A DNA stretch of 64,000 nucleotides, from sequence record LC788706.1, one strand, 5' to 3'. Positions within the stretch are counted from its first letter, which is position 1; the number at the start of each line of letters is the position of its first letter. This stretch comes from Escherichia coli phage KS_S14. The position numbers and the translations under genes were made by a program. Below, piece after piece: positions 1 through 33,010 of the stretch. The notes under the pieces were generated by a model. That model was not told where the DNA came from. It saw only the letters and a list, made by a program, of their open reading frames with translations, and made no database searches.

Positions 1-170
1 CTTTTGACGGTGATCACATTCCACTAGAACAATTATCCTGTGATTACATGATATTGAAGAACTTTGACGAGACAAAGATCTCAAGCGTTTATAATCGACA
101 GAATCCATTAACGTGGAAATATAAGAAGAAAAAGAAAGGCATCAAATTCTTAAAAAATGTAGTTGCTTAG
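1..170 (+). CDS. hypothetical protein, 3' fragment (gene starts upstream of window)
   Basis: Open frame from window edge to TAG at 168-170; Lys-rich C-terminus. Confidence 0.3.
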   Translation, partial: FDGDHIPLEQLSCDYMILKNFDETKISSVYNRQNPLTWKYKKKKKGIKFLKNVVA

Positions 171-219
171 TTTCCAAAAGTTCTATATAATAATTACATA
201 AATTGAACTGGAGAAGCTA

Positions 220-2776: not shown

Positions 2777-3239
2777 CAGGGTGCTTCAAGCTCTAGATCT
2801 TCCAGAGCTCTTTACTATTACCGACCCCTTAATACATCGGTATATGGAAAAGTATAATGAAATCTCTGGTAAAAAAGGGAAACTAAAATCCTCAGAATTT
2901 AAGTTCTGTTATAGAATGGCAGCATTAAACCTCTTAAAGTACAAGAGGGAGCATAAAATCCCTATAACAGAAGGATTTGTCTATGTAATAGGTAATCCAG
3001 CATGGCCTGGACTATATAAGATAGGTATGACAGTAGATGTGAATGAAAGACTGTCTAGTTATCAAACATATTCGCCTTATCGTGATTACAAGTTATACCA
3101 TTTCAGATTCTCCTCGGACAAGAGAAGAACTGAAAAAGCATTACATAACCTTCTGAAGGACTACAAAGTATCAGGAGAATGGTTTGAAGTACCTCTGTTA
3201 GACGCCTTCAAACTATTAGTAGAAAATTTGGATTGCTAA
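2766..3239 (+). CDS. T5orf172-family (GIY-YIG-like) protein, paralog of 493..1011
   Basis: 157 aa; shares N- and C-terminal blocks with 493..1011; 3' end overlaps tRNA-Lys. Confidence 0.6.
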   Translation: MLINRVLQALDLPELFTITDPLIHRYMEKYNEISGKKGKLKSSEFKFCYRMAALNLLKYKREHKIPITEGFVYVIGNPAWPGLYKIGMTVDVNERLSSYQTYSPYRDYKLYHFRFSSDKRRTEKALHNLLKDYKVSGEWFEVPLLDAFKLLVENLDC

Positions 3240-3307
3240 CTCAACTGGATAAGAGTACCGGACCTTTAATCCGTCAGTTCTGGGTTCGAATCCCAGGCAA
3301 TCCACCA
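3230..3307 (+). tRNA. tRNA-Lys (anticodon TTT), tentative
   Basis: Acceptor ggattgc/gcaatcc, T-arm ctggg-ttcgaat-cccag, CCA; anticodon loop ccTTTaa with C at position 33. Confidence 0.5.
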
Positions 3308-3325
3308 ATTTCAAGAAAAACTCAG

Positions 3326-3354
3326 TTGCTTGATGCTTAATTTCTTGTTATAAT
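3326..3354 (+). promoter_or_regulatory. sigma70-type early promoter (TTGCTT-17-TATAAT) driving a non-coding transcript
   Basis: Consensus hexamers followed by ATAAATTGATGAGGAGAG box. Confidence 0.6.
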
Positions 3355-3361
3355 ATTTATA

Positions 3362-3592
3362 TAAATTGATGAGGAGAGATCCTCATCATAGTTCACTAAG
3401 GTATTAGCTCGACCTAGGACTGGCTGCCAAAAAGCACGATCCCTACGATTCGGGAGAAGTTCTAGATTAGTCCACTAGATTCAGCGGCAACTGAATAGTG
3501 TATTGGGTTTGCGAGATGACGCAGTTCCTTCCGCTCGAAGCGAAGGTGCTGTAGTTACGCCGAGCTAATAGCCTTAGTAAACTAAAGAATTT
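3362..3592 (+). ncRNA. promoter-driven structured RNA candidate upstream of tRNA-Ala
   Basis: Starts with perfect 7-bp hairpin gatgagg/cctcatc after the promoter; no ORF with RBS; further hairpins; ends at tRNA-Ala. Confidence 0.35.
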
Positions 3593-3671
3593 GGGGAATG
3601 GGTCTGCATGGAGTGGACACCTCGCTTGCACCGAGGACATCAGAACGGTTCGATTCCGTTATTCTCCACCA
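3593..3671 (+). tRNA. tRNA-Ala (anticodon TGC)
   Basis: Acceptor ggggaat/attctcc, anticodon stem cctcg/cgagg with loop ctTGCac, T-arm aacgg-ttcgatt-ccgtt, CCA. Confidence 0.6.
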
Positions 3672-3676
3672 AATAC

Positions 3677-3753
3677 GCGTGATTGATGGAATTGGCATAC
3701 ATACCGTCCTTAGAAGTCGGGTTTTGAGGGTTCGAATCCCTTGTCACGCACCA
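3677..3753 (+). tRNA. tRNA with TAG anticodon (Leu-type) but short variable region, atypical
   Basis: Acceptor gcgtgat/gtcacgc, T-arm gaggg-ttcgaat-ccctt, CCA; anticodon loop ctTAGaa; irregular D region. Confidence 0.45.
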
Positions 3754-3878
3754 AATTTGATGGTCAGAGTAAATTAAACCTACTATCTCGGTTGAGCTGT
3801 TTTAATGGGTTCGAATCCCAGCGAGGCGTAACTGCCTGGTGTGATAGAGGCATCATTCCACTAACATTGGAAAAACTA

Positions 3879-4109: not shown

Positions 4110-4114
4110 TACTT

Positions 4115-4205
4115 GGAAGAGCAAATCGAATTGGCGACGAAAACCGCTTGGAAAGTGGCTGACTGGTAAAACGGCTTGAGAGTTCAAATCTCTCCTCTTC
4201 CGCCA
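4115..4205 (+). tRNA. tRNA-Ser (anticodon GGA), class II
   Basis: Acceptor ggaagag/ctcttcc, anticodon loop ttGGAaa, long variable arm, T-arm gagag-ttcaaat-ctctc, CCA. Confidence 0.55.
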
Positions 4206-4217
4206 AACAATTTATAT

Positions 4218-4312
4218 GGTAGGTCAATCCAACGGCTGGCGCTGGACTCCGACTTGAAATCGGTTGATCGTAGTGATACGGTGTAAGGGTTCGATCCCCT
4301 TACCTACCTCCA
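4218..4312 (+). tRNA. tRNA-Ser (anticodon TGA), class II
   Basis: Acceptor ggtaggt/acctacc, anticodon loop ctTGAaa, long variable arm, T-arm aaggg-ttcgatc-ccctt, CCA. Confidence 0.55.
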
Positions 4313-28966: not shown

Positions 28967-29361
28967 TGCAAAAGTCCTTATATCGCCGCCTATCGTGTCA
29001 AGTTATTTCGTGCTGTGGATAACGTTGTGGATAACCTAAATGATAGTGCTTCTCACTTAGCTAGATGATTTCTTATAGTTATTATTTCTCATTAATTTAT
29101 ATGTATATTATATATCATGAAATAGTTAGTTAGCTAATGAGATTTTTCGTGATTAATAGTCTGCTAATAGTTTACTCGGTTACAGTCCACCAGCATGATT
29201 ATCATCCTAGCAATTATTATCCTGCTATCTTTCCGATGCATACTAACAAATAAAAGTCAATTAATTTATTTCATAAAATAAGTAGTTATCCACTGGAAAA
29301 TAAAAGTCAAGTGGATAACTAGGAAAATTTCATTTTTGCTTTTGGGGATAAGTTATCAACA
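28953..29361. promoter_or_regulatory. DnaA-box cluster in divergent control region
   Basis: TGTGGATAA at 28953, 29024, 29036; TTATCCAC at 29286; GTGGATAAC at 29311; TTATCAACA at 29353. Confidence 0.5.
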
Positions 29362-29766
29362 AGGCTAGAATGCACCTAAAACGCCCTAGAACGCGATGAA
29401 AGTTTTAGCCATGCCATTGCATTGCCTACCCTCGTTTATCGCTACCACGAGCTTTTTAGTTTTTGTCAAGTAGGGCAAGGCAAATATAAATGAAAAAATT
29501 ACTTGCCAACCTGCTGGGTTTTATGGTATTCGCGCGCCCGTTTCTTTTAATTTTAGGCCGTCGCCGCACGCCGTCCGGTGAGTTTTTGTCTTTACATTTC
29601 TTTACAAAAATAAGGTTGCGCCATTTTCGGGAATCCCCTATTATTTATCTCGTAGGGCGGCAATGACGAACTACACGGCGGGAAGTTTACCGCCACGCTC
29701 TTTAAAAATTGGGTACATCTTAAAGCCTATCGGCGGTAAACTTATACATTATAAGGAATCGACGAT

Positions 29767-29970
29767 ATGAAACAAACTTTATTGATCACTGGCAAGCCTA
29801 TTAAGGCACTAGATAGCAAAACAAAAAAATTGTTGACAGTAGCGCAAAGATCGGTAAAATACCGATTCACGCAGTACAAGAAAGGCCGCCAGCAAGGTTT
29901 AGAAATGATCTGGCGAAATATTATGATTGACTTGAAAGAAAATCATAAAAAACTGCAAAAAATTGTTTGA
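29767..29970 (+). CDS. hypothetical basic protein
   Basis: 67 aa; first ORF of + strand pre-early-like operon. Confidence 0.4.
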   Translation: MKQTLLITGKPIKALDSKTKKLLTVAQRSVKYRFTQYKKGRQQGLEMIWRNIMIDLKENHKKLQKIV

Positions 29971-30136
29971 CAATCTAGCCGATAGGTTTTAAGATGTACT
30001 CAGTTCGATAAGAGCGATAACTTGATAAAATTTGACGGTCGGTGCTTACCATAATGCATCCCGCCCCCTAACTGGGATATAGCGGCCTACGTGGAGTTCT
30101 TTAAATTGGTTAAACTGGCGAGCGGATTGTTACTTA

Positions 30137-30164
30137 TTACCTGCTAGTATTTTCTAGCAGGTAA
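30137..30164 (+). promoter_or_regulatory. intercistronic palindrome ttacctgctag/ctagcaggtaa
   Basis: 11-bp perfect arms with 6-nt AT loop between genes. Confidence 0.4.
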
Positions 30165-30200
30165 TGCGGAACAATCCCCAAATAACTAGGAGTTTATATT

Positions 30201-30452
30201 ATGCAAAACGTTATTACCGCGCCTAAAATTGGTCAATCCGTCTTTATTCCTTTCGTTACTAAAACGGATGAATTAACCGGAAAAGCCGAACGCATTAAAG
30301 GTGCGGCGCTTATGCCGTTCGATACAATCGACGCGGTATACGCTGAAACGGAACGCAGTAACAACGGCAAACCAGTTTTTAGCGTTCGCGTTAAATCCGG
30401 TGACGTTGTAAAGGTTGTTCAACGCAACGAAAAATGGGAAGCTGTTTTGTAA
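30201..30452 (+). CDS. hypothetical protein
   Basis: 83 aa ORF with AGGAG RBS. Confidence 0.45.
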   Translation: MQNVITAPKIGQSVFIPFVTKTDELTGKAERIKGAALMPFDTIDAVYAETERSNNGKPVFSVRVKSGDVVKVVQRNEKWEAVL

Positions 30453-30466
30453 TTTAGTGTTAACTT

Positions 30467-30494
30467 TATATTCCCCTGAAATATGGGGAATATA
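30467..30494 (+). promoter_or_regulatory. intercistronic palindrome tatattcccc/ggggaatata
   Basis: 10-bp perfect arms, 8-nt loop. Confidence 0.4.
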
Positions 30495-30553
30495 ACGATT
30501 AACATTAAGTTAATCATTAAATCCCTTAAATTAAACTAATAGGAGTTTTTACC

Positions 30554-30961
30554 ATGACTAACGCAAAAACCGCAAAATTCGCATGGAATGAAGAAAACAC
30601 TCAGAAAGCTGTTACCATGTATCAGCAGTTAATCAATGAAAACGGTTTAGATTTCGCAAATAGCGACGGTCTGAAAGAGATTGCGAAAGCAGTAGGCGCG
30701 GCCTCCCCCGTGTCAGTTCGCTCAAAATTGACCAGCGCGAAAGCATATCAAAAAAGCGATAAGCCGCGCAAAGTAGGCGGCGGTAGCTCTGTGCGTAAAG
30801 CTCATTATGTACGCGTTATCGCTAAACATGCTATTGATTCCGGCATTATCAAAGACGCCGACGATCTGGCAAGTCTGGAAAGTGCAAAACTTGAAACGCT
30901 GGACGCAGTAGCGCAACTGTTAGGCGTTGCCGATGAAGTAAAACAAGCCGCAGGCGAATAA
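30554..30961 (+). CDS. pre-early protein, possibly A2-like
   Basis: 135 aa; immediately upstream of the A1-like gene; assignment by position and size only. Confidence 0.35.
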   Translation: MTNAKTAKFAWNEENTQKAVTMYQQLINENGLDFANSDGLKEIAKAVGAASPVSVRSKLTSAKAYQKSDKPRKVGGGSSVRKAHYVRVIAKHAIDSGIIKDADDLASLESAKLETLDAVAQLLGVADEVKQAAGE

Positions 30962-30962
30962 T

Positions 30963-31006
30963 AGTTATATCTTGCCCCCTTTTAGTGAGGGGGCAATAAT
31001 ATAACT
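30963..31006 (+). promoter_or_regulatory. intercistronic GC-cored palindrome
   Basis: ttatatcttgccccc...gggggcaataatataa imperfect inverted repeat. Confidence 0.4.
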
Positions 31007-31051
31007 GTTTAGCGATAGTTATTTTCTTCCCTTAAATCAGGAGTTTTAAAA

Positions 31052-31249
31052 ATGGTTTTCTTCCCTACTGAATCATTAATTCTAGGCTTGTTTATTATGG
31101 CGGCCTCGTTATTGTTCGCTTATTTTCAAAATGATTTAGACTCATATTATTTTAAGCGTAAGTCTAAATTGGCAAAGCGTTTAGGTCTGATTTGTTTTAT
31201 TGCCGCCGTTGCTTGTGGTGTTAGTTCTAGCCTGATGCCTTTAAATTAA
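31052..31249 (+). CDS. small membrane protein
   Basis: 65 aa, two hydrophobic helices. Confidence 0.4.
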   Translation: MVFFPTESLILGLFIMAASLLFAYFQNDLDSYYFKRKSKLAKRLGLICFIAAVACGVSSSLMPLN

Positions 31250-31260
31250 TGTTGCAAATT

Positions 31261-31286
31261 ATAACGCCTATTATTCGAGGCGTTAT
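31261..31286 (+). promoter_or_regulatory. intercistronic palindrome ataacgcct/aggcgttat
   Basis: 9-bp arms, 8-nt loop. Confidence 0.4.
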
Positions 31287-31339
31287 ATTTGGCAATATTG
31301 CCGTTATTAATCTAATCCCTTTAATGGAGTTTTATTACT

Positions 31340-33010
31340 ATGATTATTTCCGCAGAAAAACAAACCGTTATCCTGAAAATGGCCGCTGACTTTAATTTCT
31401 ATGGTAAACGTCTGCGCGCTACTAAACTGGAAGTCTGCGACGATATATCAAAAGCGGTCTACGATACTACTAAACACTCCACCGCTATCTGCGACTGGCT
31501 GGAAGCAAATAAACCAGCTAAACCGAAAGCTGCAAAAGTAGCAAAAGCCATTAAAAACGATGAGCGCCCAGAAGCGGCGGGAATTGTTTCTAGTACGGTT
31601 GAGCAATGGGAAGTAAAACAGGGTAAACGCTTTATTATTACGTCGATTCAGAATAATACTTTCCCGCATAAAAACTTTTTGTCCTCGCTTGAACAATACG
31701 CTAAATATATCGGCGCTGATTTGCTTGTTTCTAAGTATATTTATAATAAAAACGGCTTCCAGAATGGAGAAGGTGCAGACGGTATCAAATACGATCCCGC
31801 ATTTGATAAATATATTTGCAGCAAAAACGTGTTTTTAAATAACCGCCGCTTTGCTTTCATGGCTGAAATTAATGTTTTGCCCACCGCAGATTATCCGCTT
31901 TCAGGATTCGCAGAAACTGCAACGGCTTTAAATATTGAAGGGCTGGCAATTGGTCATGCTAAAATTACCGCCGAAAGCGTGCCAGCTCTCAAAGGTGAGG
32001 TAGTGCGCCGCATGTATTCAACCGGAACGGCGACGTTAAAAAACTATATCCAGCAAAAAGCAGGGCAAAAAGCCGAGGCGCTGCATAACTTCGGCGCGCT
32101 GATTGTTGAGTTCGACGAGGACGGGGAATTTTTTGTTCGCCAGCTTGAAACAATGGATGAAAGCGGGGTGTTTTATGATCTGAACGTTTGCGCTACTCCT
32201 GCCGGATGTTATGAAACATCGGGACATGTTTTAGGCTTGCAATATGGCGACATCCACGCAGAAAAATTAGATGAGGAGTGCGCCGCCGCATCTTGGGGGC
32301 ATGGTGACACCTACGGGCTTGTGGATATTCTTAAACCAAAATATCAATTCGTCCATGACGTGCATGATTTTACATCACGCAACCATCACAACCGCGCATC
32401 CGGTGTATTCCTAGCAAAACAATACGCCGCCGGACGTGATAAGGTATTAGATGATCTTATCGATACGGGGCGCGTATTGGAATCAATGGAGCGCGATTTT
32501 TCTCAAACGATCATCGTAGAATCAAACCATGATTTAGCTTTATCCCGTTGGCTGGATGATCGTAACGCCAACATTAAAGACGACCCTGCAAACGCGGAAC
32601 TATATCACCGCCTGAATGCCGCTATTTACGCCGCAATCGGTGAGCATGATGAAACGTTTAACGTGCTTGATTATGCGCTGCGCAAAGTTGCAGGTTGTGA
32701 GTTTAACGCCATTTTCCTAACGACTGACCAGTCTTTCAAGATTGCAGGCATTGAATGCGGCGTACACGGTCACAATGGCATTAACGGCAGCCGTGGCAAT
32801 CCTAAACAATTTAAGAAATTGGGCAAGTTAAACACGGGGCATACGCATACCGCCAGCATTTACGGCGGTGTATATACCGCTGGCGTGACTGGTAGTCTGG
32901 ACATGGGTTACAACGTTGGCGCGTCTAGCTGGACTCAAACGCATATTATTACCTATGCAAACGGTCAACGCACTTTGATTGACTTTAAGAATGGTAAATT
33001 CTTTGCGTAA
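31340..33010 (+). CDS. A1: A1-like pre-early protein, calcineurin-like metallophosphoesterase (putative nuclease)
   Basis: 556 aa, the size recalled for T5 A1; motifs GDIHAEK, HDVHD, ESNHD, GHNGINGSRGN, GHTHT. Confidence 0.6.
   Translation: MIISAEKQTVILKMAADFNFYGKRLRATKLEVCDDISKAVYDTTKHSTAICDWLEANKPAKPKAAKVAKAIKNDERPEAAGIVSSTVEQWEVKQGKRFIITSIQNNTFPHKNFLSSLEQYAKYIGADLLVSKYIYNKNGFQNGEGADGIKYDPAFDKYICSKNVFLNNRRFAFMAEINVLPTADYPLSGFAETATALNIEGLAIGHAKITAESVPALKGEVVRRMYSTGTATLKNYIQQKAGQKAEALHNFGALIVEFDEDGEFFVRQLETMDESGVFYDLNVCATPAGCYETSGHVLGLQYGDIHAEKLDEECAAASWGHGDTYGLVDILKPKYQFVHDVHDFTSRNHHNRASGVFLAKQYAAGRDKVLDDLIDTGRVLESMERDFSQTIIVESNHDLALSRWLDDRNANIKDDPANAELYHRLNAAIYAAIGEHDETFNVLDYALRKVAGCEFNAIFLTTDQSFKIAGIECGVHGHNGINGSRGNPKQFKKLGKLNTGHTHTASIYGGVYTAGVTGSLDMGYNVGASSWTQTHIITYANGQRTLIDFKNGKFFA

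Follow-up and report, generated by a model that had tools for sequence, protein, structure and literature searches.

RNA 2H and its promoter P13b in the T5-like Escherichia coli phage KS_S14: a covariation-supported double-pseudoknot fold and a proposed route of excision

The region preceding the tRNA-Ala gene in Escherichia coli phage KS_S14 (LC788706.1; the 64,000-nt stretch analysed is hereafter called the window) corresponds, as judged from its sequence, to promoter P13b and RNA 2H of phages T5 and BF23, and is hence an already known element and no discovery. Added here are a double-pseudoknot fold supported by covariation, a distribution of the RNA that now takes in three Demerecviridae groups and four genera, a hypothesis on its processing, and evidence of dispensability. 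The model as a whole, in which P13b drives RNA 2H, which adopts the double-pseudoknot fold, is excised within its closing duplex P1 and probably acts in trans as an accessory RNA, is held with moderate confidence.

The window belongs to a T5-like phage (Demerecviridae), and its first 7 kb constitute the tRNA region, with 14 tRNAs called by ARAGORN. Megablast of positions 3200–3800 matched 508 phage records, chiefly of Tequintavirus and Epseptimavirus. Over 276 nt the RNA region was 96.7% identical to BF23 (AJ604530) and 97.1% identical to T5 (AY692264), and both records annotate there “promoter P13b”, a 172-nt “rna2H / RNA 2H, stable RNA with unknown functions” and then tRNA-Ala; the ends and the stability of RNA 2H are as annotated by the GenBank depositors. 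The position is the same as in T5 and BF23, between tRNA-Lys/Val and tRNA-Ala, except that the window is without tRNA-Val between tRNA-Lys and the promoter; otherwise there is no material difference. The RNA core (3389–3584), numbered as window position minus 3388, was 100% identical to that of phage phiLLS. Coordinates are collected in Table 1.

Table 1. Promoter, RNA and tRNA features of the region, with the two more distant RNA 2H homologues; helices are those of the predicted fold, and positions refer to the window unless another locus is named.
Feature	Position	Core position	Strand	Remarks
Promoter P13b	3306–3380		+	Annotation transferred from AJ604530 (BF23) and AY692264 (T5); includes A-rich upstream region
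P13b −35 element	3326–3331		+	TTGCTT; followed by 17-nt spacer
P13b −10 element	3349–3354		+	TATAAT
P13b downstream box	3361–3378		+	
T5-type early promoters	163, 2206, 3326, 6280, 8420, 15906, 18470, 18978		+	
T5-type early promoter	35899		−	
5′ leader hairpin	3367–3388		+	Perfect 9-bp stem: TGATGAGGA (3367–3375), loop GAGA, TCCTCATCA (3380–3388)
Mature RNA 2H	3402–3573	14–185	+	172 nt; misc_RNA rna2H of BF23 (L001, 1791–1962) and T5 (L003, 683–854)
P1, 5′ strand	3389–3411	1–23	+	9 of 22 P1 pairs change on both sides; 98.5% of cells paired
P1, 3′ strand	3561–3584	173–196	+	Bulged G at 3571 (G183)
PK1, 5′ strand	3417–3422	29–34	+	GGACUG; pairs with P3 loop UAGUCC (3468–3473, core 80–85)
PK2, 5′ strand	3425–3428	37–40	+	UGCC; pairs with P4 loop GGCA (3486–3489, core 98–101)
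Single strand	3429–3437	A-run 41–45	+	AAAAA then GCAC; CCAAAAARCACG in the three representative lineages compared
P2′ (tentative)	GUGU at 3498–3501	46–49 with 110–113	+	GCAC with GUGU; one-sided changes only, one break
P2b	3440–3455	52–67	+	Hairpin arm that varies in length; both-sided changes in 3 of 4 pairs
P3	3461–3479	73–91	+	Hairpin UCUAG/CUAGA; 4 of 5 pairs change on both sides; loop holds PK1 3′ strand
P4	3480–3495	92–107	+	Hairpin UUCA/UGAA, loop motif YGGYAA; 4 of 4 pairs change on both sides
P5	3511–3560	123–172	+	Long irregular arm abutting P1; sequence swapped between phage groups, architecture retained
tRNA-Ala(UGC)	3593–3671		+	ARAGORN, Rfam
tRNA-Leu(UAG)	3677–3753		+	ARAGORN, Rfam
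Homologue in Klebsiella phage IME260 (Sugarlandvirus)	L071, 9783–9998			67.8 bits
Homologue in Pectobacterium phage DU_PP_V (Hongcheonvirus, Mccorquodalevirinae)	L070, 11673–11869			62.9 bits

Among the annotated matches examined, only the T5 and BF23 records name RNA 2H, and no structure is given in either; none of 14 genome records sampled from 426 core-bearing blastn matches annotates it. The Epseptimavirus S114 record carries a “putative P13b-like” promoter label, and several other records have a “hypothetical protein” CDS laid over the RNA region. A literature search found no paper dealing with RNA 2H. The Rfam search proposed with the initial annotation returned no family match: against Rfam 15 (including GOLLD, ROOL, 6S, Y RNA and ribozymes) nothing reached gathering score, with noise only at E ≤ 10, and the divergent homologue KpGranit likewise had no match. 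A tRNA or tRNA-like RNA was rejected, with no ARAGORN call and no RF00005 match in 3389–3584 at E ≤ 10, and with the T-loop motif (GGTTCRANYCC) absent from the sequence.

The initial annotation had described at this locus a TTGCTT-17-TATAAT promoter with the conserved downstream box, followed by a perfect hairpin (gatgagg/cctcatc) in place of a ribosome-binding site and ATG, and all of these elements were recovered. The site shows the features of the T5 early promoter class, i.e. TTGCT(T/A), 17-nt spacer, TATAAT, A-rich upstream stretch and the box ATAAATTRATGAG; its own downstream box, ATAAATTGATGAGGAGAG, starts seven nucleotides past the −10 element. The promoter class is not a chance pattern, because TTGCT-N18-TATAAT occurred in nine copies in the window vs 0.18 expected, a count reached in none of 100 shuffles, and the A-rich upstream stretch and the box ATAAATTRATGAGRRGG were common to all nine T5-type sites. 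P13b was without variation from −35 to +10 in eight phages, and by analogy with other T5 promoters the transcription start would lie near 3361. At most other sites the downstream box also provides the first gene with its ribosome-binding site, and a start codon was found within the 45 nt shown at seven of the eight; at 3326 the box is instead paired to its complement, and there is no subsequent ATG.

This pairing forms the 5′ leader hairpin, of which the gatgagg/cctcatc element is the core, and which by its sequence appears to sequester the SD-like GAGGAG of the standard downstream box. Among T5-like phages the stem was conserved and the loop variable or inverted; DU_PP_V has another hairpin (GGGGAG/CUCCCC) at this position, and Sugarlandvirus is without one. 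In fp01 (L008), S114 (L007), L009, L061 and L063 the leader hairpin (approximately window 3372–3384) gives way to a structured insert of about 95 nt closed by a stem, AAAUUGAUG/CAUCAAUUU, of roughly 9 bp; for this insert no Rfam match was obtained in the long-leader variant fp01. Two metagenome contigs (L032 and L038; approximately window 3376–3379) have the same stem with the loop ATTTCT, the reverse complement of the usual AGAAAT, as though the palindromic hairpin had been inverted. As a terminator the leader hairpin was rejected, as the scan lists it for the minus strand only, where there are no genes, and the plus strand has no U-run.

The approximately 200 nt past the leader hairpin, ending 8 nt before tRNA-Ala, contain stops in all six frames. 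The longest ORF overlapping the region is 57 aa on the minus strand, antisense across tRNA-Ala, which accords with the earlier reading that no credible ORF is present. All six frames carried stops in each of seven representative homologues, and homologue lengths differ by 1, 23 or 26 nt, none a multiple of three; on these two grounds the protein-coding reading was rejected and the element is non-coding. Plus-strand orientation of the RNA is certain, because the covariance model scored 242 bits on the plus strand vs 35 bits on the minus strand and several near-invariant G-U pairs become A-C mismatches if read from the other strand. The hypothetical CDS annotations and the 57-aa ORF could be taken to mean that the region is not an RNA element and holds a small protein gene or a DNA-level signal, but besides the stops, the indel lengths and the antisense course of the ORF, substitutions are compensatory for RNA pairing and the G-U pairs are strand-specific, which makes this explanation extremely improbable.

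Minimum free energy of 3361–3592 was −87.4 kcal/mol (z = −6.55 vs shuffles), and the folding is genuine; several further hairpins had been noted initially. The predicted fold, supported by covariation, comprises the closing duplex P1 of 22–24 bp, the hairpins P2b, P3, P4 and P5, and a double pseudoknot in which one single strand would pair successively with the P3 loop (PK1) and the P4 loop (PK2). For comparison, 46 distinct core sequences were gathered from GenBank phages, IMG/VR and metagenomes. When 34 T5-like sequences were aligned with MAFFT alone, both partners had changed in 14 pairs, and pairing was retained in 96.5% of cells vs 31–44% when partners are slid. In an alignment of 33 sequences with the IME260 and DU_PP_V copies included, fitted to the nested helices, whose pair counts are thereby inflated, and not fitted to PK1 and PK2, 37 of 69 pairs change on both sides vs 17.3 ± 2.1 in shuffles (37 reached in 0 of 500), and 94.8% of cells pair vs 32–40% with partners slid; this covariation comes from few independent lineages, i.e. 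about three deep groups with sub-types.

Pairing in P1 is retained in three distinct sequence versions, with a conserved box UAAGG...GCCUUA, of which GCCUUA (3571–3576) was present in every sequence examined. PK1 occurs as GGACUG/UAGUCC in T5-like phages, AGUCG/UGGCU or UGACU in Sugarlandvirus and GAACCG/UGGUUC in DU_PP_V, and three of its six pairs change on both sides in the alignment not fitted to it. PK2 is more tentative than PK1: pair 38–100 is G-C in 29 sequences and A-U in four, and 98.5% of its cells are paired. P3 was found in four paired versions (UCUAG/CUAGA, UCUGAU/AUCAGA, CGGAG/CUCCG, UUCCG/CGGAA) and P4 in three (UUCA/UGAA, ACGC/GCGU, AGGG/CCCU), and in P2b UCCC/GGGA is swapped for UUGCAA/UUGCAA with a longer distal part. 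In P5, changes on both sides affect nine pairs when Markadamsvirinae alone are aligned with MAFFT, and 13 in the wider, model-fitted alignment. The single-stranded elements CCAAAAARCACG, YGGYAA (the P4 loop) and GUGUA are conserved in all lineage representatives compared, with substitutions or a one-A deletion in the A-run of individual Markadamsvirinae. A 6-mer of P1 recurs in the P5 apical loop: in the T5 type it is GCUCGA of the 5′ strand (3407–3412 vs 3534–3539) and in the Epseptimavirus/Sugarlandvirus type GCUAAU of the 3′ strand; the repeat could be due to chance or be a feature of strand exchange or dimerisation.

The first RNAalifold consensus of the T5-like sequences contained the helices P2 (26–33/70–77), P2a (35–37/45–47) and a proximal P4 (85–89/108–112); P2 and P2a were rejected, being unpaired in IME260 and DU_PP_V, and the revised fold scores these homologues 16–18 bits higher. 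GUG 110–112 (3498–3500) can pair with CAC 47–49 (P2′, within 3434–3437) or with CAC 85–87 (3473–3475), and in JN-S202001 the changes A86G and U111C retain the pairing with CAC 85–87 and disrupt the one with CAC 47–49. GUG 110–112 may thus have two conformations, or the double change may be due to chance. Two mutually exclusive pairings in a complex pseudoknotted fold right after a promoter would suit a riboswitch-like sensor or attenuator governing read-through into the downstream tRNAs or ORF, but no hairpin with a U-run lies on the plus strand from 3361 to the tRNAs, no expression platform is visible, the downstream genes are tRNAs, and the RNA is excised as a stable RNA according to its annotation; such a cis-regulatory role is very unlikely.

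The T5-like cores are mosaics, in which P2b and P5 are swapped, with the same architecture kept, for versions that differ in sequence and length, against a near-invariant background of promoter, closing duplex and some 100 nt of core. The covariance model built from the T5-like alignment gave one strong match in each of two further Demerecviridae groups, in phages IME260 and DU_PP_V (Table 1), and with the revised fold these copies scored 81–89 bits using fewer pairs. Their homology is supported by genomic context, since the IME260 copy has a TTGCTA-17-TATAAT promoter directly upstream and a tRNA-Ala beginning 3 nt downstream, and in DU_PP_V a tRNA-Leu lies 5 nt downstream of the RNA. Blastn with the T5-type core did not recover either as a full-length homologue; by blastn the similarity of the IME260 copy to Epseptimavirus is confined to its P5 half, and the DU_PP_V copy finds nothing but itself. 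Sequence and fold are clearly constrained between related phages, contrary to the lack of constraint that the initial annotation had named as counting against it. Elsewhere, blastn found no counterpart in 5,426 E. coli host genomes, scanning 185,579 genomes of bacteria and archaea for the motif yielded 10 matches of which none passed the model, the motif scan of metagenomes gave T5-like contigs only, plus about 11 chance matches, and a search for loci related to the neighbouring Sugarlandvirus protein gave just two near-identical contigs.

Downstream of the promoter, the scan listed no terminator-like site on the plus strand from 3361 up to and including the tRNAs (to 3753), and on this basis the transcript most likely continues into tRNA-Ala and tRNA-Leu, which would be co-transcribed. 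The initial annotation had envisaged a 230-nt non-coding RNA; its non-coding character was borne out, and a discrete transcript of 230 nt was not, as there is no terminator-like site and the annotated mature RNA is 172 nt. There appears to be some truth in both roles offered for it, that of a leader from which processing releases tRNA-Ala and that of an independent small RNA. Located between the promoter and the two tRNA genes with no terminator-like site, the segment most likely forms the 5′ portion of a precursor of tRNA. An independent RNA is supported by the annotation of a discrete 172-nt “stable RNA” and by the internal fold, conserved with compensatory changes in three phage groups, which a mere spacer would not need.

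According to the BF23 annotation, both tRNA-Ala and tRNA-Leu suppress once their anticodon is changed. Just past tRNA-Leu, within 3757–3835 and outside every called tRNA, lies the T-arm-like sequence GGGTTCGAATCCC; tRNA-Leu is annotated as 84–87 nt in relatives vs 77 nt by ARAGORN, and the call may be truncated, or GGGTTCGAATCCC may be a tRNA remnant. Two long-arm tRNA-like sequences without ARAGORN call, at about 4111–4201 and 4218–4308, are probably the tRNA-Ser genes annotated in BF23; the latter scored 38 bits on the tRNA-Sec model, under threshold.

In the proposed pathway, host sigma-70 RNA polymerase would start at about 3361 and produce a transcript most likely ordered as the 5′ hairpin hiding the SD-like sequence, RNA 2H, tRNA-Ala and tRNA-Leu. 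The 172-nt RNA would then be excised by staggered cleavage inside P1, at the AAGG/CCUU box beside the bulged G, leaving tRNA-Ala with a 5′ leader of about 20 nt for RNase P. Judged by geometry alone, the cleaving enzyme is most likely host RNase III. Of the two ends given in the annotation, the 5′ one (core 14) is paired to core 182 and the 3′ one (core 185) to core 12, giving a 2-bp stagger with the bulged G, and it is from this location of both ends within P1 that we infer RNase III-type excision. The P1 duplex, at 22–24 bp, covaries in its upper and lower halves and has the length of about 20 bp or more expected of an RNase III substrate. Its lower half, outside the mature RNA, is conserved and covarying (pairs 7–190 and 8–189), so that excision would seem to require the duplex in full.

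The ends, with a paired 5′ nucleotide and a 3′ tail G-C-C, also fit RNase P cleavage followed by 3′ exonuclease trimming that halts at CC; this route is the less probable one, as tRNA features are absent and the CC of the precursor is base-paired. Such ends could make the RNA a mimic of a tRNA acceptor end, with an RNase P 5′ end at core 14 and a trimmed G-C-C extended to GCCA by the CCA-adding enzyme, that engages tRNA-handling enzymes. Next to core 182, the partner of the 5′ nucleotide, come G183-C184-C185, like a discriminator base plus CC; GCCUUA occurs in all lineages examined, P5 and P1 are stacked directly on one another like a T arm and an acceptor stem, and the neighbouring BF23 RNA1 and RNA2 as well as T4 rnaC are tRNA-like. 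However, ARAGORN and the tRNA covariance model were blank in 3389–3584 even at E = 10, the T-loop sequence is absent, and in the precursor CC pairs with G12-G13 in a lower stem that covaries, an arrangement favourable to a double-strand nuclease that would be an obstacle to RNase P. Moreover, G/U at −1/+1, as at the 5′ end of RNA 2H, is not typical of RNase P substrates. A tRNA mimic of this kind is accordingly judged improbable, and excision by RNase III is preferred.

In rRNA operons and the T7 early transcript, RNase III stems are likewise long duplexes formed from the flanks of a structured RNA, and they are cut at positions offset by 2 bp across the duplex, which is the same working principle. 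The predicted cleavage box of RNA 2H differs in that its sequence, AAGG/CCUU plus the bulged G, is conserved, an uncommon feature of RNase III sites. In BF23, “RNA IV” (L001, 532–659) is also enclosed by a long terminal stem, and with the RNA 2H model it gives a weak score of about 10 bits on either strand; T5 stable RNAs may thus commonly be built with flanking duplexes.

The T4 species 1 and 2 RNAs (rnaC, rnaD) are comparable as small, stable, function-unassigned RNAs in a phage tRNA cluster, and are co-transcribed and processed with the tRNAs. T4 rnaC has a tRNA-type T arm, CCGGGUUCGAAUCCCGG, which RNA 2H is without, and the RNA 2H model reached at best 10 bits on the T4 tRNA region, i.e. 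no match. Paralogy with other BF23 stable RNAs or with rnaC and rnaD was rejected for want of a model match, and the T4 RNAs are analogues of RNA 2H, not homologues. GOLLD and ROOL RNAs resemble RNA 2H in being phage-encoded, elaborately folded, often located beside tRNAs and not obviously regulatory; they are several times larger, and their Rfam models do not match the region.

RNA 2H is dispensable in culture, because it is missing for the most part in one natural phage and wholly covered by a viable deletion in another. Phage vB_EcoS_FFH_1 (L057, NC_024139) has naturally lost core 24–148 by a deletion between a GCTCGA in the P1 5′ strand and its repeat in the P5 apical loop; the promoter and tRNA-Ala are still present. 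The viable mutant T5-123 carries the deletion 29191–32442 (PMC11464382), and RNA 2H, located at 31718–31913 in AY587007, falls inside it. Dispensability would also be expected if the element were only a cis-acting processing module, i.e. a folded leader that organises maturation of the downstream tRNAs, in the manner of the stems flanking rRNA in its operons, and whose 172-nt piece is a functionless by-product. The RNA lies directly upstream of a tRNA in T5-like phages, Sugarlandvirus and DU_PP_V (3–20 nt), and the lower P1 3′ strand serves as the 5′ leader of that tRNA. Against this, RNA 2H is not tied to tRNA-Ala, as an 87-codon ORF follows it in place of a tRNA in three Epseptimaviruses (Ace, KKP 3953 and PRF-SP13) and unrelated sequence follows it in L053; two pseudoknots and the single strands noted above are kept across genera, though a cleavage platform has no need of them, and the RNA is annotated as stable. 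A purely cis-acting module is thus considered unlikely, and a product that acts in trans is favoured.

The conserved single strands and tertiary pairings of the mature RNA, a dispensable accessory molecule, suggest action in trans through binding of a protein or small ligand, with a role, at present speculative, in host take-over or counter-defence. What makes such a role plausible is the documented character of the T5 tRNA region as a counter-defence island, with several determinants (PMC11464382; bioRxiv 10.1101/2023.03.15.532788), among them tRNA-Lys against PARIS, and tRNA-Tyr and Rad against retrons. Rad itself, the retron anti-defence factor, is an ORF and distinct from RNA 2H. Rather doubtful, though conceivable, is the further reading of RNA 2H as founder of an undescribed class of trans-acting, double-pseudoknotted phage RNAs, acting against a host nuclease or a defence system as its decoy or inhibitor, or else as a ligand- or protein-binding or even catalytic RNA.

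T5 is a classic model phage, in which RNA 2H stands as an orphan structured RNA. A promoter type among the strongest of the phage, a demanding tertiary fold in at least four genera and dispensability in the laboratory make up the profile expected of a host-range or counter-defence factor. With a defined fold, a covariance model and natural variants in hand, its function is now directly testable. If the founder-class reading were true, RNA 2H would be one more determinant of the T5 counter-defence island.
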